Origin: Pedobacter sp.
GTDB lineage: Bacteria; Bacteroidota; Bacteroidia; Sphingobacteriales; Sphingobacteriaceae
Assembly: GCF_045627485.1 (NCBI RefSeq)
Contig: NZ_JAZQNU010000050.1
Span: 1,031 to 65,030, forward strand
Length of the DNA: 64,000 nt
Direction of reading: 5' to 3'
Positions 2,772-38,701 of the stretch are shown piece after piece. A program made the position numbers and the translations under genes. The notes below the pieces were generated by a model that had not been told where the DNA came from, did no database searches, and saw only the letters and a program-made list of their open reading frames with translations. Each line of letters begins with the position of its first letter. Position 1 is the first letter of the stretch.

Positions 2772-2808
2772 AAAAAAAAGGCCAGGGGGTAAACCTCTGG
2801 CCTTTTTT
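2772..2808. terminator. Bidirectional intrinsic terminator
   Basis: AAAAAAGGCCAGGGGG-taaa-CCTCTGGCCTTTTTT between convergent genes. Confidence 0.85.
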
Positions 2809-2830
2809 GTATATCAGCTGTACATCGGTA

Positions 2831-3526
2831 TTAGACAAATACTGGTGTTTTGTGCTCAATGGTATATTTAAAGTTCTTAATTTCTTTCCGCAACAGGTGT
2901 TCAAAGTAGGGATTGATCATTTTGGACAGTCCCACGCCAATACCGCCGATAATTGGGCGGTAGGAGAGCACAATTTTTAATAGCGTCCCTCGTCCATCAA
3001 GAGTTTCCTCAAATTCCACTCGCCCTACATGTTGTACCAGCGGCGCATTGATGGAACGCCAGCCAATTAAGCGTCCTGGTTCGTCTTTCACAATTTCTGC
3101 ATCCCATTTAATAGCGAAAACATTGCCCAAAACAGCAGTTTTCCAGGTAGACAAATGTTCATCCACCACTTCTACGTTCAGCATGTTGTGTAGGGTGCCA
3201 GGCAGGTTTTTTAAGTTCCGCCAGTAAGCATATACCTCAGCCGGAGGAAGGTCTATCTCAAAGTCACCCCTGATGTTAACGGCCTGTGGTCTTTTCGCGT
3301 CAATCCCCAGGTAATCGTAAAATATACATTTGCCGGTCACCCCGCGGTAGGCCATGTAAGCACCATAAAGAAAGCGGCCTTTTAATGGATTTTTTAACGA
3401 CGATCCAATTAAAATGCCACCTAATAGCATAGATGCCAAACGTTCGTTAAGGCCCATATTTTCATAATGTTGCCTCTCGATGGCATAATTTCCAGACCGG
3501 GGCTTAAAGTGATTTTCAGTCTTCAT
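2831..3526 (-). CDS. DUF2892 + SRPBCC (cyclase/dehydrase-like) domain protein
   Basis: N-terminal ERLAS..RGVTGKCxxYxxLG (DUF2892-like); C-terminal VYAYWRNLKNLP..WDAEIV..IGWRS (SRPBCC). Confidence 0.85.
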   Translation of the reverse strand: MKTENHFKPRSGNYAIERQHYENMGLNERLASMLLGGILIGSSLKNPLKGRFLYGAYMAYRGVTGKCIFYDYLGIDAKRPQAVNIRGDFEIDLPPAEVYAYWRNLKNLPGTLHNMLNVEVVDEHLSTWKTAVLGNVFAIKWDAEIVKDEPGRLIGWRSINAPLVQHVGRVEFEETLDGRGTLLKIVLSYRPIIGGIGVGLSKMINPYFEHLLRKEIKNFKYTIEHKTPVFV

Positions 3527-18052: not shown

Positions 18053-18231
18053 ACTTTATTCTCTTTACACGCTAGCGTATCACATCAATGCAAAGATCGT
18101 GATCACAATCAAATAATCGAAACGTTTTAATACCAAGAAACATATAATCTAAAAATTAATTTTGTTAAATGTTGTTAAAATTGTTTAAGCGATGAAATTT
18201 AATAATACCTTAGGTCTAAGATCTATTTTCT

Positions 18232-23449: not shown

Positions 23450-24142
23450 ATGCTTGAAATTGTTTACCAGGACGAACATTTAATTGCTATCAATAAACCA
23501 CACGGCTTATTGGTGCACCGATCGGTGATTGCTAACGATGCAAAGGAGTTTGCTTTGCAGCTGTTAAGGGATCAGATCAACCGTCGGGTGAGTCCGGTAC
23601 ATCGTTTGGATAGAAAAACCAGCGGATTGCTGCTGTTTGCTTTTGAAAAAGATGTGGAAATTGCCATGCACAAACAATTTCAGGAAGGCCTGGTGCAAAA
23701 ACGCTATAAAGCGGTTTTAAGGGGGTATTCGCCAGATAGCCTGGATATTGACTATCCCTTAACAAATGATAATGGGGTAGTGCAGGAGTCTTTTACTTCT
23801 TTTAGAACACTTGCCCGCGCAGAGCTTAAGGTAGCATTTGGTAAACACGAAACCAGCCGTTATTCTTTTGTGGAAGCTGCCCCAACAACTGGCCGTATGC
23901 ACCAGTTGAGAAAACACTTTGCCCATATATTTTATCCCATCATCGGCGATCGCAAACATGGTTGTAATAAACAGAACAAGTTTTTTAAAGAGCAGTGGGA
24001 TATGACCACGATGTTGCTTCACGCATCAGAGCTGGAGTTCCTGCACCCGGTAACAGGGGAGGAAATCCAGCTCCAAGCCCCGCTACATGATGAATTTAAG
24101 CGGGTAATGACGTTAATGAGTTGGGAAGCGTTTAGCGCATAA
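23450..24142 (+). CDS. truC: RluA-family pseudouridine synthase, TruC-like
   Basis: AINKPHGLLVHRS, HRLDRKTSG catalytic motif, TGRMHQLRKH, IIGD.KHG. Confidence 0.85.
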   Translation: MLEIVYQDEHLIAINKPHGLLVHRSVIANDAKEFALQLLRDQINRRVSPVHRLDRKTSGLLLFAFEKDVEIAMHKQFQEGLVQKRYKAVLRGYSPDSLDIDYPLTNDNGVVQESFTSFRTLARAELKVAFGKHETSRYSFVEAAPTTGRMHQLRKHFAHIFYPIIGDRKHGCNKQNKFFKEQWDMTTMLLHASELEFLHPVTGEEIQLQAPLHDEFKRVMTLMSWEAFSA

Positions 24143-25910
24143 CTAATTTATTTAAGGTCAGTTCTGCTTCTGCCAGTTGCTGTTGTATTTCCTCCACAGC
24201 ATGCTGGGTCTGTAATTTTAACGCCGGAACAAGTGTTTTATAATAATTGATGCCTTCTTGTAATTGCTGACTAAACTTGTTAAAGTATTTGGCTTTTTTG
24301 TCGTTCAGGTTGTCCATGTGTAAAGCCATGTCTTTCTTTAAATAGTCCAGGTACAAGTTTAATTCATTAATAAAAAGGTTTGGCCTGTTTACTTCAGCCA
24401 GTAAGTTTACGCGTCCATAAATGTGGTTAATCATTTCCGGTAATGTGTATTTGCCTGAGAAATAAGCAAGGTTAGGTCCCGGACAGATGCTTACCGCTTC
24501 GCTTTCTTTCGGTTTCAACATGTGGTTCTTTAAATAAGTAGAAGCACATAAACCTTCGCATAAACACACTTTTTCCAATACGGAATTAACTTGTCGCTGG
24601 TATTCCGCTTCCGGAAGATCCAAAGATTTTAATTGTTCGGTTTTTAAATGTTGGTATTCGCGGGAAGCTGTACAGATGGGTTCTGCTGTAAACTCAGTAT
24701 TGCTCACTAAAAGCTTTTTTTTACACGGGCTTCCCGGCCTTCCTTTGGCTATACGTTCCAAACGCAGGGTTTCGGCAGTGCTTTTAGAGAAATTGTTAAA
24801 CAATACGCCTAATGGGGAGGAATTGCTCAGGTAAAAGTCTTTTTCTTCTGCCGTAATTAAGGCATCTAAGGTTTGATCATCGACGTTTGTAGCTTCAGGA
24901 ACCAGTAAAAACGGACTTCCCCAGCCTGCAGCATCCAATTGGTAGTGGTTAAGCAAGAAGTTATGTTCTTCAGCTGTTCCTATGCCACCCTGAACTGTAA
25001 TGTGTTGTGTGCGTTTTGATGCTGCTTTCAAACCTTTGTTTTCAAGTGCTACTGTATAAAGTTTCCAAAGCTCTTCAGCAAGCTCCGTTCTTTTCTGTTT
25101 AAATTCTTCCAGTATCGGACCCATTAAAAAACCATCCGTTGCGAAGGCATGCCCGCCACAGTTTAATCCTGATTCCACTCTGAATTCGGAAATCCACAAA
25201 CCTCTTTTCGCCAGCATCTTTGCCTGAATATAAGCAGAGCGGTAATCACTCACTTTCAGGATGATCTTTTTAGCAGGCTCCCCATCTTCAGCATAAAATG
25301 CAGGACAACGCTCCATATAAGCAAACAAGCGTGGATTAAGTCCTGCAGAGATGATGATGGATGCCGCCAGATTACTTTCTGTAAAGCCACGCATCGCAGC
25401 CAGTGCATCTGAGTAATCGTCGCCTAAGGGTTCGTTTTGCTTGTTGAAATTATTTTTGTCAACCTTAGACATGATGTTCACGTCGATAGAACCTGCGGTA
25501 ATTTGAATTTTTAGTGCTTCTAAAGCTAATAAACATTCATCTTCAGGTAAAAGCATTGCCGCGTGGTACTGTTGTTTTAAAATAGCATTTTCGGGCAATA
25601 ACTGGAAATAGCGGGTTAATTCGCTATCAGGTGTAAATGCTTGCTGCTTGATGTCGGCAATCTGCCGGTTCACCAACACGTGTAATAAATTAAGGTAGGT
25701 GGTAATTCTCTTCGCGCGACTGTCTTCTTCTTTTACGGTAATTGGTGTATAAGGTATATCGTTGTGCACCGCATGGTATTTCCGCATCCGCTCTGTCAGT
25801 TCGTCATCAACGATAGAGACGACAGAAGAGATGCCATATTTAGCAACTTTTAAAGGTGTATCAATGGAATAACCTAAACCGAGAACAGGGATGTGAAAAG
25901 TATGTGTCAT
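24132..25910 (-). CDS. Uncharacterised protein; divergent FMN TIM-barrel of the NMO/FabK/FabX type with a Cys-rich C-terminal region
   Basis: Motif series IPVLGLGYS, DVNIMSK, IISAGL, LKVSDYRSA, VESGLNCGGHAF, QGGIGT, GWGSPFL, SPLG, CLCEGLC, CPGPN. Start placed at MTHTFHIP (25910). Confidence 0.7.
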   Translation of the reverse strand: MTHTFHIPVLGLGYSIDTPLKVAKYGISSVVSIVDDELTERMRKYHAVHNDIPYTPITVKEEDSRAKRITTYLNLLHVLVNRQIADIKQQAFTPDSELTRYFQLLPENAILKQQYHAAMLLPEDECLLALEALKIQITAGSIDVNIMSKVDKNNFNKQNEPLGDDYSDALAAMRGFTESNLAASIIISAGLNPRLFAYMERCPAFYAEDGEPAKKIILKVSDYRSAYIQAKMLAKRGLWISEFRVESGLNCGGHAFATDGFLMGPILEEFKQKRTELAEELWKLYTVALENKGLKAASKRTQHITVQGGIGTAEEHNFLLNHYQLDAAGWGSPFLLVPEATNVDDQTLDALITAEEKDFYLSNSSPLGVLFNNFSKSTAETLRLERIAKGRPGSPCKKKLLVSNTEFTAEPICTASREYQHLKTEQLKSLDLPEAEYQRQVNSVLEKVCLCEGLCASTYLKNHMLKPKESEAVSICPGPNLAYFSGKYTLPEMINHIYGRVNLLAEVNRPNLFINELNLYLDYLKKDMALHMDNLNDKKAKYFNKFSQQLQEGINYYKTLVPALKLQTQHAVEEIQQQLAEAELTLNKLVMR

Positions 25911-25965
25911 GTTGAAAATTGTCATTAATAATCACAAAGAAGCATACAAAATTTACTTAAAAACA

Positions 25966-25977
25966 TGACCGGCATCA
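25966..25977. promoter_or_regulatory. Fnr-type box TGAC-CGGC-ATCA
   Basis: TGAY-N4-RTCA match 55 nt upstream of ORF 25910; differs by 1 nt from the box at 28492. Confidence 0.65.
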
Positions 25978-26253: not shown

Positions 26254-27438
26254 ATGGAACAAGGAAGGCTTTTAAACGCAATTATAGATAATGCTATTGA
26301 TGGCATTCTTACAATTGATAATAAAGGCGTCATAGAAAGTATCAATCCAGCGGCTTTAAAGCTTTTTGGCTACAAACAGGAGGAAGTGCTAGGGAGGAAC
26401 ATTAGTGTATTAATGCCAGAACCCGATAAAAGTGCACACGATGGTTACCTGCATCGTTATCAGCGTACAGGCGAAAAACGCATTATCGGGATTGGCCGTG
26501 AAGTTCGTGGACTGCGAAAGGACGGTTCTACTTTTCCTTTTCGTTTGGCCGTTAGTGAAGTCCAATACTTAGATCGAATTATTTACACCGGATTTATTCA
26601 CGATTTATCTAAAGAAAAGGAAGCAGAGGAACGTTTACGCGAATATGCCGCAGAACTGGAAGAACTTGTGGAGGAAAGGACCCGTTCGTTAAAGAAAACG
26701 GTTGTTGCCCTAAAGGAAGCGAAAGAGGAAGTGAGTTTATCGCTTGTTAAGGAAAAGGAACTTAACCAAATGAAAAGCCGTTTTGTGTCTATGGCTTCGC
26801 ACGAATTCCGCACACCACTCAGTTCCGTGCAGCTTTCTGCATCTCTCATTGAAAAATATGCCCAACCTTTTCAGAATCCCAACATCAGTAAACATGTTGG
26901 AAAAATTAAAAATGCTGTGGGCAACCTAACCACTATCCTAAACGACTTCCTGTCATTGGAGCGCCTGGAAGCAGGCAACGTAGAACCTACCTTCAGCACC
27001 TTTGATGTGGTTAAGTTTTCGGAGGAGGTTACCGAAGAAATGCAGATGATTGCTAAGCAGGATCAAAATATCATCTACCAGCATACCGGTATTCAAAGTA
27101 TGGTAGAGCTGGATCAGAATTTATTAAGAAACTGCATGATCAACCTGATTAGTAATGCCATTAAATATTCAGGAGAAAATACTTTTATAGAATTTAATAC
27201 TGAGATTACTGACAGCGAGTATTTTTTTATGATCAAAGACAATGGCATTGGCATTCCCCTAACAGACCAGGTACATTTGTTTGAACCATTTTTCAGGGCC
27301 AATAATACAGGTAGCATTCCAGGTACAGGCCTTGGTTTAAACATTGTTTTGCGTTATGCCACCCTGATGAACGGTAAAGTTCATTTTGAAAGCACCATTA
27401 ATAAAGGAACAACATTTATACTTTCTTTTCCAAAATAG
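26254..27438 (+). CDS. FixL-type heme-PAS sensor histidine kinase
   Basis: LMPEPDKSAHDGYLHRY..IIGIGREVRGLRKDGSTFP closely follows the FixL heme-PAS pattern, with the proximal His and distal Arg positions kept. H-box ASHEFRTPL; HATPase boxes. -7 element TATATTTG upstream. Confidence 0.9.
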   Translation: MEQGRLLNAIIDNAIDGILTIDNKGVIESINPAALKLFGYKQEEVLGRNISVLMPEPDKSAHDGYLHRYQRTGEKRIIGIGREVRGLRKDGSTFPFRLAVSEVQYLDRIIYTGFIHDLSKEKEAEERLREYAAELEELVEERTRSLKKTVVALKEAKEEVSLSLVKEKELNQMKSRFVSMASHEFRTPLSSVQLSASLIEKYAQPFQNPNISKHVGKIKNAVGNLTTILNDFLSLERLEAGNVEPTFSTFDVVKFSEEVTEEMQMIAKQDQNIIYQHTGIQSMVELDQNLLRNCMINLISNAIKYSGENTFIEFNTEITDSEYFFMIKDNGIGIPLTDQVHLFEPFFRANNTGSIPGTGLGLNIVLRYATLMNGKVHFESTINKGTTFILSFPK

Positions 27439-28494
27439 ATGAGTAAAATAAGGATACTGATAATAGAAGACAATAACGACATCAGGGAAAGCACAGCTGA
27501 GATTTTGATGCTTGCAGACTATGAAGTGATGGAAGCTAAAAATGGTAAGATTGGTGTAGAACTGGCGACAACTCATCTACCGGACGTTATTTTATGTGAT
27601 ATCATGATGCCCGAACTGGATGGGTACGGGGTGTTGTACCTGCTTAATAAAAACCCGCAGACGTCCTCCATCCCTTTTATTTTCCTGACGGCAAAAGCTG
27701 AACGCATCGATATGCGTAAGGGTATGGAAATGGGTGCAGATGATTACCTCACCAAACCTTTTGACGATGTTGAATTACTCAACGCCATAGAAAGTCGCCT
27801 TGCTAAGAAAAACAAGCAGAAAGCATTTTACAGTAAATCACTTGAACAGTTAAGCGGACTGATTGGAACCACTTCTGGTTTACATGCCCTTCAGAAATTA
27901 GTGGCGGAGCGTAAAGTGCGTCACATTAAAAAGAAACAGGTCATTTATTATGAGGGTGATAGTGTAACCGGTATATTCCTGGTGATCCAGGGCAAAGTGA
28001 AAACTGTGAAACTCAATGAAGATGGCAGACAGTTGATGACGGGAATTTACGGAAATGAGGAATACTTTGGAATCACCAGCCTATTACTTCAAGAACCTTA
28101 TGCAGAAACCGCGGAGGCGCTGGAAGATACCACCATTTGTTTATTACCCAAAGACATGATGGAAGACCTGTTAAACCAGTTTCCTGACCTTGGGCGTAAA
28201 TTTATTAAAATACTTTCCAACCAACTGCTCGATAAGGAAGAACAACTGATGCAGCTGGCTTATCACTCGGTAAGAAAACGTTTATCCGAAGTTTTGATTC
28301 GCCTTGCAAAACAGGAAAAATCAGGGAATCCTGTGTTAAAGGTGTCGCGCGATAACCTGGCGGCATTGGCGGGCATGGCTACAGAAACGGTAAGCCGTAT
28401 TTTAAGCGACTTTAAAGAGGAGAGCATTATTGAAAGAAAAGGAAGCCAGATTCATATTATAGACTTTCATAGGTTGGAGCATATGAAAAACTGA
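27439..28494 (+). CDS. Response regulator: receiver + cNMP-binding + Crp/Fnr HTH
   Basis: IIEDN..LCDIMMP..FLTAK receiver; cNMP barrel; VSRDNLAALAGMATETVSR Fnr-type helix. Abuts the kinase stop codon. Confidence 0.93.
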   Translation: MSKIRILIIEDNNDIRESTAEILMLADYEVMEAKNGKIGVELATTHLPDVILCDIMMPELDGYGVLYLLNKNPQTSSIPFIFLTAKAERIDMRKGMEMGADDYLTKPFDDVELLNAIESRLAKKNKQKAFYSKSLEQLSGLIGTTSGLHALQKLVAERKVRHIKKKQVIYYEGDSVTGIFLVIQGKVKTVKLNEDGRQLMTGIYGNEEYFGITSLLLQEPYAETAEALEDTTICLLPKDMMEDLLNQFPDLGRKFIKILSNQLLDKEEQLMQLAYHSVRKRLSEVLIRLAKQEKSGNPVLKVSRDNLAALAGMATETVSRILSDFKEESIIERKGSQIHIIDFHRLEHMKN

Positions 28495-28503
28495 CCAGCA
28501 TCA
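28492..28503. promoter_or_regulatory. Fnr-type box TGAC-CAGC-ATCA
   Basis: Overlaps the regulator stop codon; upstream of -7 element TATTTTTG (28549-28556) and the ORF 28576-hemN operon. Confidence 0.65.
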
Positions 28504-28575
28504 TATTTCAAACTGATGTAACGCATTCCCTCGTTGTTGCGGTCTCTTTATTTTTGATCTATTAAAAGATCAAGT

Positions 28576-29028
28576 ATGAGAGTAGTAGCCTATAGTATAA
28601 AATCTTCTGAAAAAGAGCCACTGGCCATCGCCAACCGAAAGAAGCATGAAATTACTTTAATTTCTAATGCATTAAGCGAGGACACAGCCATTTACGCGCA
28701 AGGAAAAGAAGCCGTTATTGTTTATGAAGGCGATGTTGTAAATGCCAGTGTGATTAATATCCTCGCTGATCTTGGCATTAAATACATCACAACCAGATCA
28801 AATTCAACTGCCCATATTGATGAACGTGCTGCAGAAAGCAGGCAGATCAAACTGGCCTATGTGCATTCTGACAGTATCGACCAGCTTTCCAACGAAACCT
28901 TATTAAACGTGTTAGCAGCCGAAACAATTAGTAACCTTGACAAATGGCAAGGTAAACGCTGTTTAGGATCTGCATGTATCTGTTCTGCAACGTGTCGCGG
29001 ACCTTTAAAAACAGAACATGAACACTAA
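28576..29028 (+). CDS. D-lactate-dehydrogenase-like substrate-binding domain only (no NAD domain), Cys-rich tail
   Basis: N-terminus follows the LdhA pattern (VAYS.K..EK, A.G.EAV.V..GD, ILADLGIKYITTRS..HID..AA) and then jumps to the C-terminal helix AETISNL; tail CLGSACICSATC. Confidence 0.75.
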   Translation: MRVVAYSIKSSEKEPLAIANRKKHEITLISNALSEDTAIYAQGKEAVIVYEGDVVNASVINILADLGIKYITTRSNSTAHIDERAAESRQIKLAYVHSDSIDQLSNETLLNVLAAETISNLDKWQGKRCLGSACICSATCRGPLKTEHEH

Positions 29029-30382
29029 AGCATTAATACAAAAATATAATGTAGCGGCACCACGCTACACCAGTTATCCTACCGTTCCGTTCTGGGATCA
29101 GGCTACATTTAATCAAGAAAACTGGGCCAAGGCTGTTGTACAAACCTTTAATGACAGTAATACCAGTGATGGTATCAGTGTATATATTCACCTTCCTTTT
29201 TGTGAAAGTTTGTGTACCTATTGTGGATGCAACACCCGGATTACCGTAAATCATAAAGTCGAAGAACCTTATATCGCTACAGTACTGAAAGAATGGTCAT
29301 ATTATGTGGCATTATTTAAAGACAGGCCTCAGATCAAAGAATTGCACCTTGGCGGTGGTACACCAACATTTTTCAGTGCAGAAAACTTAAAGCAGTTAAT
29401 TGCCGGAATTTTCGCGTTAGCAGACCGTCATCCTGATGCTGAATTTAGCTTTGAGGGTCATCCGGGCAATACCCGGAAAGAGCACCTTGCTACTTTATTT
29501 GATTTAGGATTCAAACGCCTGAGTCTGGGTATACAGGATTTTGACCCAAGGGTACAATTGATTATCAATCGTATTCAAAGTTACGAGGAAGTGCAACTGG
29601 CTACCCAGCAAGCACGGGATGCCGGTTATACCTCTGTGAATTATGATTTGATTTATGGTTTGCCTTTGCAAACCCTGGAAGGTTTGCAGGAAACCATAAA
29701 TTACGTTTTGCAACTTAAACCAGACCGTATTGCTTATTACAGCTATGCACATGTGCCGTGGATAAAACCGGGTCAACGACGTTATACCGAAAAAGACCTT
29801 CCATCGTCGGCTTTAAAGCAACAACTTTATGAGGTAGGGCGGGAGATGCTGAAAGCAGGTGGTTATACCGAGGTGGGCATGGATCATTTTACCCTGACCA
29901 GCGATACCTTGTATGCTGCTGCAGAAGATGGCGGTTTACACCGTAACTTTATGGGCTACACCCACCAGTACAGTCGTTTGATGATCGGTTTGGGGGTTTC
30001 ATCGATAAGTGATACCTGGACCGGTTTTGCGCAAAATGTTAAAAAAGTTGAAGACTACACAGCCTTGGTAGAAGCCGGGGAAATTCCAGTGTTTAAAGGC
30101 CATATTTTGGATGAAGCCGATGTGTTGTTACGCCAGCATATATTGAATATCATGTGTAAAGGTGAAACATCATGGGCGCTGAAAACGGAGCAACATCCTG
30201 ACTTTTATGAAGGACTGGAGCGAATGGAATTATTGGCTCTGGATGGATTGGTAACCCTAAATGATCAGCACTTAAAGGTTACGGAGGAAGGAAAGCGTTT
30301 TTTAAGAAATATCTGCATGGCTCTTGATGCCCGTTTATGGCGAAACCAGCCTACAACACCATTATTTAGTATGGCCGACTAA
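29018..30382 (+). CDS. hemN: Oxygen-independent coproporphyrinogen III oxidase
   Basis: PRYTSYPT, HLPFCESLCTYCGC radical-SAM motif, RNFMGYT. Confidence 0.97.
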   Translation: MNTKALIQKYNVAAPRYTSYPTVPFWDQATFNQENWAKAVVQTFNDSNTSDGISVYIHLPFCESLCTYCGCNTRITVNHKVEEPYIATVLKEWSYYVALFKDRPQIKELHLGGGTPTFFSAENLKQLIAGIFALADRHPDAEFSFEGHPGNTRKEHLATLFDLGFKRLSLGIQDFDPRVQLIINRIQSYEEVQLATQQARDAGYTSVNYDLIYGLPLQTLEGLQETINYVLQLKPDRIAYYSYAHVPWIKPGQRRYTEKDLPSSALKQQLYEVGREMLKAGGYTEVGMDHFTLTSDTLYAAAEDGGLHRNFMGYTHQYSRLMIGLGVSSISDTWTGFAQNVKKVEDYTALVEAGEIPVFKGHILDEADVLLRQHILNIMCKGETSWALKTEQHPDFYEGLERMELLALDGLVTLNDQHLKVTEEGKRFLRNICMALDARLWRNQPTTPLFSMAD

Positions 30383-30388: not shown

Positions 30389-31072
30389 TTATTTACACTC
30401 GGCCACACTAGTGGTTTGTTTAGCCGGACTCACAAAAGGAATATCTAAATTCATTCCCCTTAATAAAAACCAGCAACCCAGAAAAAGCAACATAAAGGGA
30501 ATTACCTTGTTGATGCGCTGGCGTACCAAGTTACCTGTAAAACCCATGCCAATGGTGGCTATTAACATGAGGGGAGTGGTACCTACACCAAACCAGAACA
30601 TATAACTAACAGCAAGGGACATGTTTCCTGTGTTTAATGCACCGGCCAGCGCCAGGTAAACAAAGCCACAAGGCAATAAGCCGTTAATCATACCTATGAT
30701 GAGGTGATTTGCTTTATGTTTTAAGGCATAACCAAACAGTTTGTTAAAGGGTTTAAGCAGGATACTACTGCTGTTGGCGATTGTTAATTTAAAAATTCTG
30801 GAACAAGCTGCGGCAATAATTAGGATACCTGTAAAAATACTGATTCCCTGTTGCAGGCCAGATAACCAGATTTGGCGGCCTATTAATCCAATTACTATGC
30901 CTAATACACAATAGGAAAGGATTCGGCCGGCTTGGTACAATACCTTGTCGAGCACGACATAACCTATGCCAGATTTTAAAGAAGGTACAGCAAATGCCAA
31001 AGGGCCACACATACCAATGCAATGTACGCTACCCAACAGGCCAATCATGAAAGCCAGGTATTGATCGCTCAT
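30389..31072 (-). CDS. DsbD_2 / TauE-SafE-like membrane protein of cbb3 assembly clusters
   Basis: GSVHCIGMCGP, GMINGLLPCGFVY; last gene of the cco cluster. Confidence 0.9.
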   Translation of the reverse strand: MSDQYLAFMIGLLGSVHCIGMCGPLAFAVPSLKSGIGYVVLDKVLYQAGRILSYCVLGIVIGLIGRQIWLSGLQQGISIFTGILIIAAACSRIFKLTIANSSSILLKPFNKLFGYALKHKANHLIIGMINGLLPCGFVYLALAGALNTGNMSLAVSYMFWFGVGTTPLMLIATIGMGFTGNLVRQRINKVIPFMLLFLGCWFLLRGMNLDIPFVSPAKQTTSVAECK

Positions 31073-31494
31073 TATAACATTACCTCCTTTTCATATAAAT
31101 AATCTACCCCTTCACTGGTCCAGTCGATTCTTAGTTTCCACAATCCTGTGGCAATACCACTTATTGGGATATTGAACTGGTTAAGGCTATCTGTTTTCAG
31201 GGTCATTGATTTATCCATTGTCTTATCAGCAGTTCTGATTAGTTTGACATTGCCAGTGGCCTGCTGGTTAAATAACAGGTTTAGTTGCTGGTCATGGATC
31301 ATCACTTTAGGCGCCGCCTGATCACGCAGTACCTGGGTTTTTTTCTGGTACTCTACGTTGTAGCTAATGCCTTTTTCATAATAGTCGGCATCAACTAGGT
31401 CATCATTTTTACTGGTCATCATTAAATAGGCCAGTACCATGATGAATGTCATAAATACGCCTAATCCTAATGCTATTTTTAATCCCCAATTCAT
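31072..31494 (-). CDS. ccoH: FixH/CcoH family protein
   Basis: MNWG..TM..DLVDADYYEKGISY. Start moved to MNWG to avoid overlap with ccoG. Confidence 0.88.
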   Translation of the reverse strand: MNWGLKIALGLGVFMTFIMVLAYLMMTSKNDDLVDADYYEKGISYNVEYQKKTQVLRDQAAPKVMIHDQQLNLLFNQQATGNVKLIRTADKTMDKSMTLKTDSLNQFNIPISGIATGLWKLRIDWTSEGVDYLYEKEVML

Positions 31495-31498
31495 GTTG

Positions 31499-32863
31499 TT
31501 ATTCGTTAGGTGGTGCAATAAAGGTGGTATTGAAACGGTCAATTATTTTTCCGCCCGAAACAAGCCTGAAGCTAATTTCTGTTTTATATTTTTTGATGTG
31601 TTGTTGTGGCATAATCACGAAGAAGGTAAGCTTCGCCTGTCCGCCATAACGGAGTTTGTCTTCTTTTTGAATGTATTGAATACTGGCTTTATCATCATCA
31701 GGAACGATTTCAAAAGACAGGTCGCCGCTGGTTTTATTAATCAACTCTGCATTGTAGAGATTGGTAACGGTATTTTCCTTTTCGCGCAACTGGTAGAGCG
31801 TTCCACTTGCCCTGAGTACGGTGGTTTTTACATCACTTCGGCTTATTAGGAGGTAGCTTAACACACTAACAAGTACCAGTAATACGGCACTGTAACCATA
31901 AATACGTTTGTTGAGTTTAATAGGCTGGTGATTTTTAATTTCTTCTTCAGATTTGAACCCAATTAAGCGCCTTGGCCTGTTAATCTTTTCCATTACCATG
32001 TCGCACGCATCGATACAGGCAGTACAATTAACGCATTCCATTTGAGTGCCGTTTCTGATATCAATTCCCGTAGGACACACGTGCACACATAACTTACAGT
32101 CGATGCAATCACCTAGCTGGTTGTTCTCTTCTTTCAACTTTTTACCTCTGGGTTCACCACGCAGATAATCATATGCCACGATCATACTTTGGTTATCGAG
32201 CAATACACCTTGCAACCTGCCATACGGACAAGCTACGGTACATACCAGCTCCCGCATTCTGGAGAAAACAAGGTAAAATAAGATGGTGAAGATACAAATG
32301 GATAGAAAGCCAGTGAGGTGGAGGCTCACCGGTTCTGTAACGATTTTAAGTAAAGCCGTAGTACCAATGATGTAAGCGAGAAAGATGTTGGCAATAAAGA
32401 ACGAAAGGCAGAAAAAGATCCCGTGTTTTAAGGTTTTTTTGAAGAATTTATTCCAGGTGAGTGGCGATTCATCCATTTTTTTTTGTTTCAGGTAATCGCC
32501 TTCAATCCAGTTTTCGATTTTACGGAACACCATTTCCAGAAATATGGTTTGGGGGCAGGCCCATCCACAGAAAACGCGGCCAAAGACTACCGTGAAAAGC
32601 ACAATAAAAACAATAAAAGTAAGCAAGCCCAAAACAAATAAGTAGAAATCCTGTGGCCAGAAAATGATGCCGAAGAACACAAATTTACGTTCAAGGACAT
32701 TCAAGAGGATAAGTTGTTGGCCATTTACTTTAATGAAGGGTGCTGCAAAGAGCAGCGCCAAGAAAAAGTAACTGACTACAGAGCGGTATTTATAGAGTTT
32801 ACCCTTTATAATACGGGGATAGATCCATTTTCTAGCTGAGGAATAGTTTGGGCTTGCTAACAT
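31499..32863 (-). CDS. ccoG: Cytochrome c oxidase accessory protein CcoG (4Fe-4S)
   Basis: GRVFCGWACPQT, CTVACPYGRLQ, CIDCKLCVHVCPTGIDIR, CVNCTACIDACD. Confidence 0.97.
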   Translation of the reverse strand: MLASPNYSSARKWIYPRIIKGKLYKYRSVVSYFFLALLFAAPFIKVNGQQLILLNVLERKFVFFGIIFWPQDFYLFVLGLLTFIVFIVLFTVVFGRVFCGWACPQTIFLEMVFRKIENWIEGDYLKQKKMDESPLTWNKFFKKTLKHGIFFCLSFFIANIFLAYIIGTTALLKIVTEPVSLHLTGFLSICIFTILFYLVFSRMRELVCTVACPYGRLQGVLLDNQSMIVAYDYLRGEPRGKKLKEENNQLGDCIDCKLCVHVCPTGIDIRNGTQMECVNCTACIDACDMVMEKINRPRRLIGFKSEEEIKNHQPIKLNKRIYGYSAVLLVLVSVLSYLLISRSDVKTTVLRASGTLYQLREKENTVTNLYNAELINKTSGDLSFEIVPDDDKASIQYIQKEDKLRYGGQAKLTFFVIMPQQHIKKYKTEISFRLVSGGKIIDRFNTTFIAPPNE

Positions 32864-32865
32864 AA

Positions 32866-33669
32866 TTACAGTTGCTTATCGCCCTGAGGCGCTTTAGCAC
32901 CTTCAGGATTTGTGCCTTGAAGAGACATTACATAATTGGTGATGTCGGATAATTGGGCGGCGCTCAGTGATTTTTCCCAAGCCACCATTCCTTTTTCCGG
33001 CACACCATATTTAATGGTTTTAAAAACATCGCTAATGGTACCACCGTGTAACCAGTATTCGTCGGTTAAGTTGGGACCTACAGAGCCTTCTCCTTTTTCA
33101 CCATGACAAGGTGTACAACGGGAGGTGTAAAGTGCAAGGCCACTGTTAATTACTGCAGCATCTGTACTTTGTACAATGTTGTTCTCATTCACTGCATTTT
33201 TTGAGTTACCCGGTTTGGATAAAAAGGCTATTTTAGCTTCTTCGGCCTGTGCAAGTTCGGTCAGGTATTCCTCTTCCTGGTCTTGTCCGAAGCCAAATAC
33301 CTCGTAATTAAATAAGTAGATGACGGCGAAGATCACGGTACCATAAAACAATACCATAAACCAACCTGGTGTAGGATTGTCTAACTCGGCAATGCCATCG
33401 AACTCATGTTCCATCATCTGGTCTTTTTCTTCTGCCAATGGCCTTAGGCCCATTAATTTTTCAATTAAAGTAGGGCGCTTAGGTTGTGCAGCTTTTGCTG
33501 CGGCCATGGCCTGAAGCTTTAATGCTTTCTCGGCTGGAGTGGCAAAAGGTATTGGGTTTTTAGTTTCCTCCACATAAAATTTAATCACTTTTAGCAGGAG
33601 GATTGACACCCCAAGGATCATAACGGCGGTGATGCCTAAAGCAATCACCATAATTTCTGCGTAGCTCAT
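32866..33669 (-). CDS. ccoP: cbb3-type cytochrome c oxidase subunit III (single heme motif)
   Basis: HEFDGIAELDNPTPGW N-terminal motif; one CTPCH; GPNLTDEYWLHG. Confidence 0.95.
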   Translation of the reverse strand: MSYAEIMVIALGITAVMILGVSILLLKVIKFYVEETKNPIPFATPAEKALKLQAMAAAKAAQPKRPTLIEKLMGLRPLAEEKDQMMEHEFDGIAELDNPTPGWFMVLFYGTVIFAVIYLFNYEVFGFGQDQEEEYLTELAQAEEAKIAFLSKPGNSKNAVNENNIVQSTDAAVINSGLALYTSRCTPCHGEKGEGSVGPNLTDEYWLHGGTISDVFKTIKYGVPEKGMVAWEKSLSAAQLSDITNYVMSLQGTNPEGAKAPQGDKQL

Positions 33670-33672
33670 AAT

Positions 33673-33837
33673 CTATTCTTCGTCGTTTAATGGCAGTTGG
33701 CTCATGTAGTTTACTTCCTCTTTTTTCATCAGGAGGAGCATAATGCCCACCATGATGAAAAAGAAAAAGAATATGCCTAATGAGATCATTAAATACACCT
33801 GCTTGTCGTCTACCTGATTTAAAAATTGCCTAAACAT
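33673..33837 (-). CDS. ccoQ: cbb3-type oxidase subunit CcoQ (54 aa), not in ORF track
   Basis: Hand translation MFRQFLNQVDDKQVYLMISLGIFFFFFIMVGIMLLLMKKEEVNYMSQLPLNDEE; one TM plus the ..LPLND tail; sits between ccoNO and ccoP. Confidence 0.9.
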   Translation of the reverse strand: MFRQFLNQVDDKQVYLMISLGIFFFFFIMVGIMLLLMKKEEVNYMSQLPLNDEE

Positions 33838-33855
33838 GTTTTTGTATTTTAAGTG

Positions 33856-35967
33856 TTATTTTGCTTTAATGTCTGTTCCTAATCGTTGGAGGTAAGCAAT
33901 AAGTGCAACAATCTCCTTGTCGCTTTTTACCTTTACGTTGTTTTGCTTCAAATCTGCAGCGATGGCTTTGGCTTGAATATCAAGGTCTTTGTTGGCCTGG
34001 TGTTCATAACCTTCAGCGTAAGGCACCCCTAAGGTTCTCATGGCGTTAATTTTAGCAATCGTTGTGGTGGTATCCAGCACTTGGTTGGCTAACCATTCGT
34101 AAGGAGGCATAATACTTCCCGGCGACATGGTTTGTGGATCTACCATGTGGTTGTAATGCCATGCATTGGTGTACTTCTGACCCAGACGTTGTAAATCAGG
34201 ACCTGTACGTTTAGAACCCCATAAAAAAGGATGGTCGTACACAAATTCACCTGCTTTACTGTATTCGCCAAAGCGCTCCGTTTCTGATCGGAAAGGACGG
34301 ATCATTTGCGAGTGGCAGTTTACACAGCCTTCTTTAATATAAACATCTCTTCCATGTAATTCCAGCGGAGTATAAGGTTTTACGCTTGAAATGGTTGGGA
34401 TATTAGATTTAATGGTAAAGGTTGGCATCATTTCTACCATACCACCAATCAGGATAACGATCAGTGACAATACCAGGAATACCATTGGTTTGCGTTCAAG
34501 CACACGGTGCCATTTTTTATCAGAGCCTTCAGCTACATAAGTAGCAGGAAGTGGTAGTGACTCTGCAGCTTCATCTGCAACCAATTTGCCGGCAAGTGCT
34601 GTTTTGATCAGGTTATAAGTCATCACAATTACTCCGATTAAGTAAAGGGCGCCGCCGATGGCTCTCAATACATACATTGGAATAATCTGAATAACGGTTT
34701 CAAGGAAGTTAGGATATCTTAATACACCTTCTTCGGTGAATTCTTTCCACATTAAACCTTGGGTGAAACCTGCAAAATATAAAGGTACGGCATAGAAAAT
34801 GATCCCTAAGGTGCCAATCCAGAAGTGGAAGGATGCTAATTTTTTAGAGAATAACTGGGTGTTGTAAATTCTTGGGATTAACCAGTACAGGATACCGAAG
34901 GTTAAGAATCCATTCCAGCCTAAGGCGCCTACGTGAACGTGTGCTACTATCCAGTCGGTATAGTGGGCAATGGCATTAATCTGTTTGAAAGCAAGCATAG
35001 GGCCTTCGAAAGTAGCCATACCATAGGCGGTTAAACCTACTACCATGAACTTCAGTTTTGGATCCTCACGCACCTTATCCCAGGCGCCACGCAGCGTAAG
35101 CAAACCGTTGATCATACCACCCCAACTTGGTGCAATTAACATCACGGAGAAAGCAACACCTAAAGATTGTGCCCAGCCAGGTAGTGAAGTATATAATAAA
35201 TGGTGAGGGCCTGCCCAGATATAAATAAAGATTAACGACCAGAAGTGGAGGATACTAAGTTTATAGGAATAGATAGGCCGCTGTGCCATTTTAGGAAGGA
35301 AGTAATACATCATTCCTAAATAAGGGGTAGTTAAAAAGAACGCTACTGCATTGTGGCCGTACCACCATTGTACTAGTGCATCCTGCACGCCCGCAAAAAG
35401 GTAATAGCTTTTAAATGCTGAAATTGGTAACTGGAAAGAGTTAACAATGTGTAATACAGCAACCGTAACGAAAGTGGCAATGTAAAACCAGATGGCTACA
35501 TACATGTGCTTTTCACGGCGTTTAAAAATGGTACCGAACATATTGATTCCGAATACTACCCATATTAAGGTGATGGCGATATCAATTGGCCATTCCATTT
35601 CTGCATATTCATGCGAAGTGGTTAATCCGAGTGGAAGTGTAATGGCAGTGGCGACAATAATGAGTTGCCAACCCCAGAAATGGATTTTGCTTAACACATC
35701 GCTAAACATTCTAGCCTTGAGTAGTCGTTGGAGAGAGTAATAAACCCCCATAAAAATGGCGTTCCCCACGAAAGCGAAAATAACTGCATTAGTGTGTAGT
35801 GGCCTGATGCGGCCGAAGGTGGTGTATTGACTTCCCATGTTCAATGACGGCTTAAACAGCTGCATAGCGATGAGGAGGCCAACTGACATGCCAACAATGC
35901 CCCAGACGATGGTGGCAATGGCAAAGTTTCTGACGATCTTGTTGTCGTAGTAGAATTTCTCAGTCAT
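33856..35967 (-). CDS. ccoN: Fused cbb3-type oxidase subunits I/II (CcoN-CcoO)
   Basis: RPLHTNAVIF, WWYGHNAVAF, WAGPHH, HVHVGALGW (CcoN); GCVNCHSQMIRP, WGSKRTGPDL (CcoO). Confidence 0.98.
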   Translation of the reverse strand: MTEKFYYDNKIVRNFAIATIVWGIVGMSVGLLIAMQLFKPSLNMGSQYTTFGRIRPLHTNAVIFAFVGNAIFMGVYYSLQRLLKARMFSDVLSKIHFWGWQLIIVATAITLPLGLTTSHEYAEMEWPIDIAITLIWVVFGINMFGTIFKRREKHMYVAIWFYIATFVTVAVLHIVNSFQLPISAFKSYYLFAGVQDALVQWWYGHNAVAFFLTTPYLGMMYYFLPKMAQRPIYSYKLSILHFWSLIFIYIWAGPHHLLYTSLPGWAQSLGVAFSVMLIAPSWGGMINGLLTLRGAWDKVREDPKLKFMVVGLTAYGMATFEGPMLAFKQINAIAHYTDWIVAHVHVGALGWNGFLTFGILYWLIPRIYNTQLFSKKLASFHFWIGTLGIIFYAVPLYFAGFTQGLMWKEFTEEGVLRYPNFLETVIQIIPMYVLRAIGGALYLIGVIVMTYNLIKTALAGKLVADEAAESLPLPATYVAEGSDKKWHRVLERKPMVFLVLSLIVILIGGMVEMMPTFTIKSNIPTISSVKPYTPLELHGRDVYIKEGCVNCHSQMIRPFRSETERFGEYSKAGEFVYDHPFLWGSKRTGPDLQRLGQKYTNAWHYNHMVDPQTMSPGSIMPPYEWLANQVLDTTTTIAKINAMRTLGVPYAEGYEHQANKDLDIQAKAIAADLKQNNVKVKSDKEIVALIAYLQRLGTDIKAK

Positions 35968-36027
35968 ACTTAAATAATGGATGGTTTTGATGGGGGTAAA
36001 ATTACAAGGGCATTAGCCGGAGGAGTA

Positions 36028-36039
36028 TGATGGTTGTTA
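36028..36039. promoter_or_regulatory. Fnr-type box TGAT-GGTT-GTTA (1 mismatch) upstream of ccoNO
   Basis: 60 nt upstream of the ccoN start; overlaps the ccoS stop. -7-like TAATTTTA on the minus strand at 35997-36004. Confidence 0.5.
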
Positions 36040-36225
36040 ATGTGAAGTGTGATCTTCATCATTTTTCTTCAATGGCTGATCAGTCAGCTCATCGTCAAAT
36101 AATATCCTGATGCCAGGCGTATAGGTGTCGTCATTCTGACCGGTTCTGGATGCCCAAAAAAAGGCGGTTAAAAATACCAGCGCCAGCAGAATGCTGATGC
36201 CGATAAGCATATAGATCATGTTCAT
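36037..36225 (-). CDS. ccoS: cbb3 oxidase assembly protein CcoS
   Basis: TM..FFWASRTGQNDDTYTPGIRILFDD. Confidence 0.95.
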   Translation of the reverse strand: MNMIYMLIGISILLALVFLTAFFWASRTGQNDDTYTPGIRILFDDELTDQPLKKNDEDHTSH

Positions 36226-38618
36226 AATAGATGGTTTTTTCTGGCATACAACCTTGCGGCGATGCTGGTAAATAAGATGATGGTTACCGTGCTGATGGGC
36301 ATGAGTATAGCCGCAAAGAGGGGAGACATTAAGCCTTGAACAGCAAAGTACAAGCCTATGAAGTTATAGGTTAGGGAAATGACAAAGCTCATGTGGATGA
36401 CTTTCACGCCATCTTTTGCCTGTTGTATAAACTGGGGAATTTTATTGAAGTTAGCACCATCCAGGATGGCGTCGCATCCTGGCGTAAAGTTATTGATGTC
36501 GTCTGTTACGGCTACACCAAGGTCGCTTTGTTTCAGTGCACCTGCATCATTTAAGCCATCGCCAAACATTAATACTTTTCTGCCTTTATGCTGCAGGGCG
36601 AGTACATAATCGAGTTTGTTTTGTGGTGACTGCTGGAAATGCATTTGCTGTATCCTTGGGAAAAAGGGACTAAGGCTTATACGGTCATGGTCCTGGTCGC
36701 CAGACAGTAAATGAAGGTCGGCACGTTTACTCAGGCATGTAATTAATTCTTTAAAGCCTGTACGCCATTGCTGCCCCGAAAGGAAGTAGCCTTTGTAATC
36801 ATTGTTGATCACCACATGTACCTGACTTCCCTGAGGTAGATCTTGCTTGTCGAGGCCAAGAAAAGCAGCGCTGCCCAGTTTAATGTCCTGTCCGTTGACT
36901 GTTCCCATTACACCACGGCCAACTTTTTCCCGGTAATCTGATACCTGGTATTGTGTCGGTAGGTCAAGCCATTTAACCAGCTCACGGCTTAAAGGATGGC
37001 CCGAATTCCTGGCCAAGTCACTGATTGCCTGTTTTTCCTGAGAATTTAAATCACCTTTAAAATTAAAACCAGAGGCCTTTGGGTTGGTGATGGTGCCGGT
37101 TTTGTCGAAGATAAAGGTGTCTATTCGCGCCAGCTCTTCTATAACAGAGGTGTTTTTTAAATAAAACTTATTCCTGTCAAAAACACTTAGCACGGCTGCC
37201 AGTGTAAATGGGGAACTTAAAGCAAGTGCACAAGGGCAGGCAATTATAAGCACTGCCGTGAAAGATGCCCATGCTTTTGACGGATCAAAAATCAACCAGT
37301 AGATAGCCGACAGCGTAGCTACCAACACCAATACAATGCTGAAATATTTACTGGCTGTGCCGCTAAAAGTTTTAATTCGGTCCTTATCGGCAGTGAAGGT
37401 TTCATTATTCCATAACCTTGTGAGGTAACTCTGAGAAACCGGTTTAACCACTTCCAGTTCAATGGCGCCACCTAATTGTCGCCCACCTGCATAGACCACT
37501 TCGCCCAAAATTTTCTCTACCGGTTTCGATTCTCCGGTTACAAAGCTGAAGTCAAGTTTTGCAGTACCGTAAAGTAAAATGGCATCTGCAGGAATAATTT
37601 CATTGCTGCGGATCAAAATGCGGTGTCCCTTTTTTAAATCGCCTAAAGGCAAGGGTTTATCCTTTCCATTTTCAATGATGGTTACGGCAACAGGAAAGTA
37701 GGATCGGTAGTCTCTTTCGAAAGAAAGATGATGATAGGTATGTTGCTGCATCCATTTGCCCACAAGCAGGAAGAATACCAGCCCACAAAGGGTGTCGATA
37801 AAACCTGCGCCGGTGTAAGTGGCAATTTCTATCAGGGAGCGGATAAACATCACTGCTATACCGAGGGCCAGTGGAAAATCAAGGTTGAGCACCCCATTTT
37901 TTAAATTGAGCCAGGCAGATTTGAAATATTCTGTTGCACTATAGAATACCACCGGAAGGGCAAAGGCGATATTGAGCCAGCCAAAGAAGTTCTTGAACTC
38001 TGTTTCCAATGTGGATAGGCCAAAATATTCAGGAAAGCTGAGTAACATGGTGTTACCGAAGCAGAAACCAGCGACGGCGATTTTAGTAATCAAAGTGCGG
38101 TTATCATCGTTGTTTTGTTTTTCTTTAACAACATCCTGCAGACTGATCAGTGGTTCGTAGCCAATATTGGCAAGTGTTTCTACAACGGTTCTTAACGTTG
38201 CTTTATCATTTTTGAACGTAATGGCGACTTGTTTCTTTAAGAAATCGATCCTCGACTGTGTAATGGCGGGGTTGATTTTGTATAGGTTTTCCAATAACCA
38301 GATGCAGGAACTGCAGTGTATATTAGGAATATAAAAGGTTACCACCGTTACCTCTGCGTCGCAGTAATCAACCAGGCCAGCGGCAATGGCGGGTTCATCG
38401 AGATAGTCGAAATGTTGCTTAGGTTGCTGTTGTGTTTGTCCGGGCACATCATTGTATGCATAGTAGTTGCATAAATTATGGCTGGATAAAATCTGGTATA
38501 CGCCCTTGCATCCCAAACAACAAAATTGTCTGTCGTCTAGTGTATAAGGACTAGTGGGTAAGTCTTCGCCGCAGTGATAACAATGCGTTTCTACAGAAAT
38601 GGTGTTGGTGTTTGACAT
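36222..38618 (-). CDS. ccoI: Heavy-metal (Cu) P1B ATPase CcoI/FixI
   Basis: CYHCG..CCLGC N-terminus, HCSSC, ACPCAL, DKTGT, GDGLND. Confidence 0.95.
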   Translation of the reverse strand: MSNTNTISVETHCYHCGEDLPTSPYTLDDRQFCCLGCKGVYQILSSHNLCNYYAYNDVPGQTQQQPKQHFDYLDEPAIAAGLVDYCDAEVTVVTFYIPNIHCSSCIWLLENLYKINPAITQSRIDFLKKQVAITFKNDKATLRTVVETLANIGYEPLISLQDVVKEKQNNDDNRTLITKIAVAGFCFGNTMLLSFPEYFGLSTLETEFKNFFGWLNIAFALPVVFYSATEYFKSAWLNLKNGVLNLDFPLALGIAVMFIRSLIEIATYTGAGFIDTLCGLVFFLLVGKWMQQHTYHHLSFERDYRSYFPVAVTIIENGKDKPLPLGDLKKGHRILIRSNEIIPADAILLYGTAKLDFSFVTGESKPVEKILGEVVYAGGRQLGGAIELEVVKPVSQSYLTRLWNNETFTADKDRIKTFSGTASKYFSIVLVLVATLSAIYWLIFDPSKAWASFTAVLIIACPCALALSSPFTLAAVLSVFDRNKFYLKNTSVIEELARIDTFIFDKTGTITNPKASGFNFKGDLNSQEKQAISDLARNSGHPLSRELVKWLDLPTQYQVSDYREKVGRGVMGTVNGQDIKLGSAAFLGLDKQDLPQGSQVHVVINNDYKGYFLSGQQWRTGFKELITCLSKRADLHLLSGDQDHDRISLSPFFPRIQQMHFQQSPQNKLDYVLALQHKGRKVLMFGDGLNDAGALKQSDLGVAVTDDINNFTPGCDAILDGANFNKIPQFIQQAKDGVKVIHMSFVISLTYNFIGLYFAVQGLMSPLFAAILMPISTVTIILFTSIAARLYARKNHLL

Positions 38619-38689: not shown

Positions 38690-38701
38690 TGACAGGGATC
38701 A
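38690..38701. promoter_or_regulatory. Fnr-type box TGAC-AGGG-ATCA upstream of ccoI
   Basis: Perfect TGAY-N4-RTCA, extended GTGAC..ATCAC, 71 nt upstream of ccoI; overlaps the stop of the nei-like gene. Confidence 0.65.

Follow-up and report, generated by a model that had tools for sequence, protein, structure and literature searches.

A PAS kinase gene abuts a receiver-Crp gene beside hemN and cbb3 oxidase genes

We analyzed a 64,000-nt stretch of the genome of a Pedobacter sp. (contig NZ_JAZQNU010000050.1, positions 1,031 to 65,030), here called the window, in which a soluble sensor histidine kinase gene is followed by a gene for a response regulator that joins a receiver (REC) domain to a Crp/Fnr-type output module (REC-Crp). 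This pair is discussed below as a candidate oxygen (O2) switch. The kinase stop codon, TAG, occupies 27436-27438 and the regulator ATG begins on the next base, 27439, leaving zero gap between the genes. Downstream of the regulator, on the same strand, lies a hemN gene (TIGR00538, 416 bits against a cut-off of 325), and a minus-strand cco cluster converges on the operon that contains it. Thus, the abutting genes and the adjacent cbb3 and hemN genes that a preliminary description of this DNA had reported were both recovered. The features of the pair and its neighbors are as follows (HTH, helix-turn-helix; cNMP, cyclic nucleoside monophosphate).

26254..27438, plus strand: soluble sensor histidine kinase, PAS-HisKA-HATPase_c, 394 residues (Pfam, PDB matches)
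26272..26643, plus strand: FixL-type haem-PAS domain, residues 7-130 (matches to PDB 1d06 and 8js5)
26437-26439, 26455-26457 and 26497-26499, plus strand: codons of the haem-PAS residues proximal His62, Arg68 and Arg82, respectively
26770..27432, plus strand: kinase core (Pfam), with HisKA at 26770-26976, HATPase_c at 27112-27432 and phospho-His183 at 26800-26802
27439..28494, plus strand: response regulator, REC-cNMP-like-HTH_Crp, 351 residues (Pfam)
27454..27792, plus strand: receiver domain, residues 6-118, with D11, D54 (27598-27600), T84 and K106
27919..28482, plus strand: Crp/Fnr output module, with cNMP-like beta-roll at 27919-28179, dimerization helix, and HTH at 28279-28482
28384-28398, plus strand: ETVSR of the recognition helix
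28576..30382, plus strand: hemN operon, gene for a 150-residue D-lactate dehydrogenase N-domain-like protein, then hemN (29018-30382)
30389..38618, minus strand: cbb3 cluster, ccoI, ccoS (36037-36225), fused ccoNO, ccoP, ccoG, fixH and dsbD_2

The PAS domain retains the FixL haem-pocket residues

The kinase has no membrane segment before its sole PAS domain (residues 7-130), which is followed by a coiled linker, a HisKA domain (residues 173-241) with the H-box SHEFRTPL and phospho-site His183, and a HATPase_c domain (residues 287-393). The PAS domain matches the haem domains of RmFixL (PDB 1d06, E 2e-32) and BjFixL (PDB 8js5/1dp6, E about 1e-31), in both cases over the whole length of the solved domain, and it also matches the haem-PAS fold of Escherichia coli DosP (PDB 1v9y, E 4e-18). 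These alignments bear out the preliminary claim that the domain keeps the FixL haem-pocket pattern, a string, MPEPDKSAHDGYL...IIGIGR...GLRKDGSTFP, that is found at kinase residues 54-95. To map the pocket we anchored the alignment on BjFixL His200, which corresponds to H62 of the kinase. Tyr203, Arg206 and Tyr207 of BjFixL then correspond to Y65, R68 and Y69, Ile215/216 to I77/I78, Arg220 to R82, Leu236 to L98, and Ile238 to V100, a position that is also Val in RmFixL. In total, 10 of the 10 haem-pocket residues checked are kept. A FixL-type pocket combines a proximal His with distal and FG-loop residues, and here this set consists of H62, R68, I77, R82, L98 and V100. H62 and R82 are invariant in a family alignment of all 17 orthologues of the window's sensor type, and the window kinase contains the one FixL-like PAS domain in the genome.

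The resemblance to FixL does not extend to the full-length protein. The kinase scored 166.6 bits against the FixL model NCBIfam NF041777, for which the cut-off is 850, and only residues 6-136 aligned well. The best PDB matches of the kinase core were HK853 and WalK/VicK-type kinases, and the core is closest to PnpS/WalK/PhoR/HK853. By its sequence affinities the core is a generic HisKA core, outside the FixL lineage. Taken together with the pocket, the analogy to FixL suggests that the protein is probably a soluble, FixL-type, haem-binding O2 sensor kinase.

The regulator joins a complete receiver to a Crp/Fnr output module

All three Pfam domains of the regulator scored above their cut-offs: Response_reg at residues 6-118 (97 bits, cut-off 30), cNMP_binding at residues 161-247 (PF00027, 76 bits, cut-off 27.5) and HTH_Crp_2 at residues 281-348 (PF13545, 59 bits, cut-off 27). 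The receiver contains a complete catalytic set, comprising the acidic pair E10-D11, the phospho-acceptor D54, T84 and K106. Among 33 orthologues, D11, D54 and K106 are invariant and T84 is at least 90% conserved; across the same set, conservation within the regulator is highest in the receiver and lowest in the beta-roll. The ETVSR sequence falls at residues 316-320, with E316 and R320 invariant in the 33 orthologues, and its Ser is replaced by Ile in most other families. The features that mark FNR and FixK, an E-x-x-S-R recognition helix together with TTGAT-N4-ATCAA-type sites, are thus both present, the sites in the form of TGAY-N4-RTCA boxes in which the outer T is not conserved. The cysteine cluster of FNR is absent: C53 and C234 are the only cysteines of the regulator, which scored 78 bits against NF008365 (cut-off 228), and it therefore would not carry an iron-sulfur (Fe-S) cluster. 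Hence the fusion of a receiver to a cNMP/Crp domain with an ETVSR helix and the missing N-terminal cysteine cluster agree with what had been described. The complete receiver residue set does so too, except that the acidic pair, first read as D-D, is E-D.

The nearest solved receivers are those of PleD, RpaA and the OmpR family, and FixJ was absent from the best 60 PDB matches of the receiver. The output module is closest to Thermus CRP, a Porphyromonas Crp/Fnr protein and Aliivibrio FNR (PDB 5cvr, E 9e-18), and it scored 73.8 bits against the FixK equivalog NF050806 (cut-off 300). At the positions of the CRP residues that contact cAMP (E72, R82, S83, T127 and S128), the regulator has S, T, A, K and E. 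Foldseek returned Crp, FNR and NtcA structures at E values of 1e-14 to 1e-18 and no solved structure that spans a full REC-Crp protein. An AlphaFold2 model showed good individual domains and a long helix that extends receiver alpha5 into the linker, with unreliable inter-domain packing (predicted template modeling score, 0.43); therefore, we draw no mechanism from it beyond the alpha5-linker helix. Among named organisms, Pedobacter sp. CAN_A7 has the protein closest to the regulator (94% identity). An assembly or frameshift artefact as the source of the fusion was rejected, because more than 8000 database proteins share the architecture and the family comprises 2085 clusters at 50% identity, matching at E<=1e-30.

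FNR-like boxes precede the transcription units around the pair

We next considered candidate binding sites, using TGAY-N4-RTCA as the core motif. The window contains nine such boxes, compared to 3.6 expected. The strict FNR consensus TTGAT-N4-ATCAA, allowing one mismatch, was tried and set aside, as it showed no enrichment in the window (6 found, 5.5 expected). Four of the boxes, at 28492, 36050 (with a partner at 36028), 38690 and 25966, precede transcription units around the pair. A scan for sigma-70 promoters and terminators is uninformative for Bacteroidota. The promoter features are the following.

28492..28556, plus strand: hemN-operon promoter, with exact box TGACCAGCATCA at 28492-28503 and degenerate box TGATGTAACGCA at 28514-28525, 22 bp on
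28549-28556, plus strand: hemN-operon -7 element TATTTTTG, 23 nt after the degenerate box; the two boxes are 10 nt apart
36028..36061, minus strand: ccoNO paired boxes, TGATGAAGATCA at 36061-36050, then 10 nt, then TAACAACCATCA at 36039-36028 (7/8 core positions)
38690..38701, minus strand: ccoI exact box TGATCCCTGTCA, centered 77 nt upstream of the ccoI start
25966..25977, minus strand: exact box of the gene for a 597-residue protein (24132-25925, minus strand), centered 46 nt upstream of that gene
18100..18111, minus strand: possible further box, centered 53 nt upstream of a gene for a PaaE-like ferredoxin reductase (16994-18052, minus strand)

The ccoNO box pair overlaps the 3' end of ccoS, and a regulated promoter of its own therefore appears to serve ccoNO within the cluster.

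The same boxes recur at the corresponding genes of relatives. An exact box within 260 nt upstream, for which the chance expectation is about 2%, was found at ccoI in five of eight loci, at ccoNO in five of ten, at the 597-residue protein gene in two of three and at the kinase gene in 12 of 37. Operon-internal genes gave values of 0/12 for ccoG, 1/12 for ccoP and 2/38 for the regulator. The spacing is also constrained: across 39 loci there are 22 box pairs 22 bp apart and at most three at any other spacing, and the Pedobacter genome itself contains five exact pairs at 22 bp compared to 0-1 at other spacings. When we measured from the end of a box to a perfect TAnnTTTG in the relatives' loci, two distances accounted for nearly every case, exactly 23 nt (19 cases) and exactly 45 nt (22 cases). 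The window's hemN-operon promoter, box-10 nt-box-23 nt followed by the -7 element, fits this pattern exactly. By established promoter geometry, a -7 element extending from about -12 to -5 would put the box centers near -41.5 and -63.5; the 23/45-nt distance would then correspond to the geometry of a class II activator, with a box lying over the would-be -33 element. Across genomes, exact paired boxes numbered 54 sites in 25 genomes with REC-Crp and eight sites in 20 genomes without it. A reversed-pattern control gave no paired site in these 45 genomes.

The 150-residue protein (28576-29028, plus strand) resembles D-lactate dehydrogenases (VanH-like, E 6e-10) in their N-terminal, substrate-binding domain alone, and its gene, which overlaps the hemN start, is kept between the regulator and hemN in five relatives (L003-L006 and L008). 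The 597-residue protein has no Pfam or NCBIfam match; its gene is divergent from the kinase gene, and orthologues adjoin the kinase gene, with box pairs, in two genomes of the same genus (L004 and L006). The ccoS gene encodes 62 residues, and its start overlaps the ccoI stop as ATGA.

The pair is widespread in Bacteroidia and occurs with two sensor types

Full-length REC-Crp proteins were found in 59 of 400 genomes that sample the phylum evenly, and 56 of the 59 belong to the class Bacteroidia, where they are spread over about a dozen families. Among named organisms, REC-Crp is present, for example, in Mucilaginibacter, Chitinophaga, Segetibacter, Niabella, Larkinella and Jiulongibacter, and also in metagenome-assembled genomes of Flavobacteriales. 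Apparent full-length relatives in Chloroflexota proved to be REC-GGDEF proteins and were discarded. The preliminary description had proposed a survey of the REC-cNMP-HTH_Crp architecture beside haem-PAS kinases; in our sample of 36 relatives, from about 10 families, a PAS kinase lies directly beside the regulator in 34, and in the remaining two 15-18 kb separate it from the regulator and it adjoins the cco cluster. The pair has cco genes, hemN or both no more than 9 kb away in 18 of these 36 relatives, a linkage for which we estimate a chance of under 1% (for a ~10-kb cluster in a 4-Mb genome). In the five relatives that keep it (L003-L006 and L008), the gene for the 150-residue protein and hemN follow the regulator as a pair.

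The orthologous kinase cores are 42-76% identical to that of the window, in a continuous range. Their PAS domains fall into two classes. The FixL-like class, found in the window's own family and three others, is 53-75% identical to the window PAS. The second class, on the kinases of L020-L039 and of most other Bacteroidia families, is 25-36% identical, keeps the His and reads R-x-M-G-x-G-R-D-L, with Met replacing FixL Ile216 (Ile78 in the window kinase). Its matches to the haem domains of FixL and DosP are weak, its top match in the PDB is entry 10jx, and its sequence suggests that it may be a DosP-like six-coordinate haem sensor. Flavobacterium johnsoniae is one carrier of a pair of this sister type. 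Because sister families have a different PAS on an orthologous kinase, the sensor appears to be exchangeable. Elsewhere in the phylum, in other classes (L040-L053), FixL-like PAS domains 48-58% identical to that of the window occur on GAF-PAS-HisKA_3 kinases with no REC-Crp nearby. The FixL-like PAS is thus found on at least two kinase classes in one phylum, and the haem-PAS would therefore seem to be a movable sensor module.

An orphan paralogue widens the predicted regulon

The genome encodes a second REC-Crp protein, on another contig (C88:10000-29000, our locus L001, with the regulator at 9773-10813 of that locus). It is 57% identical to the window protein, has an identical ETVSR helix and a near-identical receiver alpha1, and has no kinase beside it. 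In a tree it groups with a regulator from another family that adjoins a kinase gene, as its sister, and the window protein is sister to the two. Four exact 22-bp box pairs surround this orphan paralogue, and they precede genes for a full-length D-lactate dehydrogenase, Hsp20, phosphoenolpyruvate (PEP) synthase and universal stress protein. As a gene set, this island resembles a dormancy/hypoxia regulon. The simplest reading of these sequences would be that one kinase feeds two regulators. Since the orphan and the window regulator share a recognition helix, the boxes are not assignable to one protein. By sequence, the predicted regulon is wider than the genes adjacent to the pair.

Further boxes lie upstream of genes for an acyl-ACP desaturase, a cyclopropane fatty-acid synthase and an L,D-transpeptidase (C30:20403, C138:49463 and C70:35982); those of the desaturase and the cyclopropane fatty-acid synthase have a perfect TAnnTTTG at 22-23 nt. 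At C70:27285-29435, after a gene for a small Crp-like protein, two boxes of the type GTGAC-N4-GTCAC precede TauE-like and sulfur-transport genes. To judge from their sequence, these are probably sites of a separate Crp-family regulon that overlap TGAY-N4-RTCA.

The output module resembles FNR-like proteins of other Bacteroidia

A cysteine-cluster FNR was not found in the Pedobacter genome, and three other Crp-like proteins encoded there are without the motif. In Bacteroidia genomes that lack REC-Crp, stand-alone proteins of 230-260 residues match the output module at E values of 1e-44 to 1e-54. These proteins (L134-L140) start with C-x2-C-x7-8-C motifs, i.e., they are FNR-like, and are 30-37% identical to the output module. 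Five genomes with FNR-like proteins only carry exact 22-bp box pairs, one of them directly beside the fnr-like gene (in L135, fnr-like gene 2410-3117, boxes at 3135/3157 and 6103/6125). Therefore, box pairs are no special consequence of the receiver. A strict either/or distribution of FNR-like and REC-Crp proteins was rejected, as several genomes hold both.

Because the nearest stand-alone relatives of the output module are FNR-like proteins with a cysteine cluster, the most economical history would be that an FNR-type activator exchanged its Fe-S arm for a receiver, with the promoter grammar kept and O2 sensing moved to a haem kinase. A literal fusion of FixJ and FixK is rejected by the PleD/OmpR-like receiver and by the scores against the FixL and FixK models. 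The affinities of the receiver, the kinase core and the output module therefore point to a receiver grafted onto an FNR-type regulator. The preliminary description had cast the regulator as one protein doing the work of both FixJ and FixK and controlling the cbb3 and hemN genes; gene order and boxes favor that logic, but a FixJ-FixK ancestry does not stand.

A predicted two-gene oxygen switch and its alternatives

We consider it probable that the pair is a two-gene switch, responding to oxygen as a haem ligand, that directly controls the adjacent cbb3 and hemN genes. In this switch a b-type haem would be held on His62 of the kinase, and Arg82 together with the IIGIGR loop would report O2 occupancy. 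At low oxygen, by analogy to FixL, loss of O2 would free the kinase to autophosphorylate on His183 and pass the phosphate to Asp54 of the regulator. The regulator would be an FNR/FixK-like dimer with a receiver where FNR has its Fe-S arm, linked by the long helix to the beta-roll. Once phosphorylated, it would bind TGAY-N4-RTCA near -41.5, often with a second box at -63.5, and activate promoters that have a -7 element, the box occupying the place of a -33 element. The window targets would be the small-protein/hemN operon, ccoNO, ccoI-ccoS and probably the 597-residue protein gene. The same kinase would probably also feed the orphan paralogue that heads the island of universal stress protein, Hsp20, D-lactate dehydrogenase and PEP synthase genes. 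Domain composition, residue conservation, gene linkage and the placement and conservation of the boxes are seen in the sequences themselves; haem binding, the O2 signal and its sign, phosphotransfer, activation and the matching of boxes to one paralogue or the other are all steps that we infer. Direct control of cbb3 and hemN by a phospho-accepting Crp/Fnr protein is the most likely arrangement on comparative genomics, because gene order is conserved, the boxes lie at activator positions and the genome has no other FNR.

Several observations weigh against this switch. The analogy with FixL is the source for haem binding, for the ligand and for the sign of the response; the kinase core and the receiver are outside the FixL and FixJ lineages, and therefore the signaling logic could differ. 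The paralogue with the same ETVSR and the three other small Crp-like proteins could bind some of the boxes. In the window, the boxes at 25966 and 38690 are single and unpaired, the one at 25966 is off the canonical distance from any obvious -7 element, and no box precedes the kinase-regulator operon, unlike in 12 of 37 loci. Across the Pedobacter genome the -7 elements are weaker and the peak at 22-23 nt is modest (15 cases compared to a background of ~6.5).

The same circuit might respond to another signal, such as nitric oxide, carbon monoxide or redox state (ferric/ferrous), or the PAS domain might hold no haem and sense a metabolite. The ligands sensed by haem-PAS relatives, DosP among them, and by other PAS domains are varied. 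The different PAS of sister families (25-36% identical, with Met for Ile78 and the His kept) and the variability of the Arg68 position (BjFixL Arg206) among orthologues also speak for a different signal. We nevertheless hold this to be unlikely, as the window kinase keeps all FixL O2-pocket residues, including the equivalent of Arg220, which is tied to O2 discrimination in FixL, and the targets are classic low-O2 genes, namely a cbb3 oxidase and the O2-independent HemN. The regulator, in turn, might need two inputs, with DNA binding requiring both phosphorylation and a beta-roll ligand (a nucleotide, a 2-oxoglutarate-like metabolite or haem). It retains a full beta-roll, above the Pfam cut-off, and many Crp/Fnr members use the beta-roll pocket for an effector. 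That a ligand is needed here is doubtful, however: the cAMP-holding residues of CRP are replaced (by S, T, A, K and E), no part of the family is less conserved than the beta-roll, and in FixK- and FNR-type members the roll serves only as a structural relay.

Alternatively, the boxes could be read by the orphan paralogue or by a small Crp-like protein, or the regulator could repress, so that the link between the pair and cco would be loose. The paralogue's ETVSR helix is identical, it is surrounded by most of the exact paired boxes of the genome, paired boxes also occur in genomes with only cysteine-cluster FNR-like proteins, and the box at 25966 lies across the probable -33 region of its own promoter. 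Against another reader, relatives with a single REC-Crp (G179, G017 and G227) keep the boxes or the gene order: L003 has a box upstream of the small-protein/hemN operon, L007 has paired boxes, and L003 and L008 have the regulator-hemN order. Against repression, the fixed 23/45-nt distance to the -7 element is the geometry of an activator. We therefore regard a different reader or a repressing regulator as very unlikely.

The two-gene oxygen switch can be extended, although we think the extension rather unlikely to hold in full, to a master low-oxygen switch of aerobic Bacteroidota that lack FNR. Here, one kinase would serve two paralogous regulators, and a receiver-bridged tetramer, possibly mixed, would occupy the -41.5/-63.5 pairs and give a steep response. 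A receiver-bridged tetramer as the cause of the paired boxes is weakened by the 22-bp pairs of genomes that have FNR-like proteins only.

Discussion

Within the literature searched, we found no study of the kinase-regulator pair or of REC-Crp regulators, in keeping with the preliminary description, which knew of no characterized case in Bacteroidota; a catalogue mention in response-regulator reviews is possible. Nor did that literature describe how aerobic Bacteroidota (Sphingobacteriales, Chitinophagales, Cytophagales and Flavobacteriales of soil, freshwater and marine habitats) sense O2 limitation. The pair is a concrete candidate for this role, with a large family, an unusually rigid promoter grammar and predicted targets that comprise a high-affinity oxidase, O2-independent haem synthesis and a dormancy-like stress set. 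REC-Crp would add a functionally unstudied output class to the response regulators, and it would suggest two ways of driving one and the same FNR-type DNA-binding module, through an Fe-S cluster of its own or through a separate haem kinase.

The closest parallel in logic is the FixL-FixJ-FixK cascade of rhizobia and Caulobacter, for which a comparative reconstruction is available (PMC4999443), together with its hFixL-FxkR-FixK variant in Rhizobium leguminosarum (PMC7888657). The Pedobacter pair shares with that cascade the haem-PAS pocket of the kinase, a final Crp/Fnr protein with an E-x-x-S-R helix, FNR-like palindromic boxes and, as predicted targets, fixNOQP/cco, fixGHIS and hemN. It differs in having two proteins instead of three, and both the LuxR-type output and the transcriptional relay are missing. 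Its receiver resembles those of PleD and OmpR and not that of FixJ (NarL) or FxkR; in the kinase, one PAS domain is joined to a generic HisKA core, and the partner of the kinase is Crp-type, unlike the REC plus LuxR/GerE HTH partner of FixL. The boxes also lack the outer T/A of the FixK site TTGAT-N4-ATCAA. These sequence relationships suggest that the pair follows the FixL-FixJ-FixK logic minus one tier and does not share its ancestry.

With E. coli and Aliivibrio FNR the regulator shares a homologous beta-roll, dimer helix and HTH, a predicted class II site near -41.5 and a predicted control of low-O2 respiration, and the same paired boxes adjoin the genes of Bacteroidia FNR-like proteins with a cysteine cluster. 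Unlike in FNR, the [4Fe-4S] arm is replaced by a 120-residue receiver and a helical linker, and O2 would be sensed by a separate haem protein, not by the regulator. The pair also recalls DosS/DosT-DosR of Mycobacterium tuberculosis, where a haem kinase phosphorylates a regulator that directly induces a hypoxia/dormancy set, as is predicted here. The alpha-crystallin (Hsp20) and universal stress genes of the DosR regulon have counterparts in the orphan paralogue island. However, DosS and DosT hold haem in a GAF domain and have a HisKA_3 core and a NarL-type regulator, whereas the Pedobacter pair has a PAS domain and a Crp-type regulator. Finally, E. coli DosP (EcDOS) has the same haem-PAS fold, and the variant PAS of the sister families shares its distal-loop Met; the output of DosP is a phosphodiesterase of cyclic di-GMP (c-di-GMP), whereas the window PAS, with Arg82, is FixL-type.

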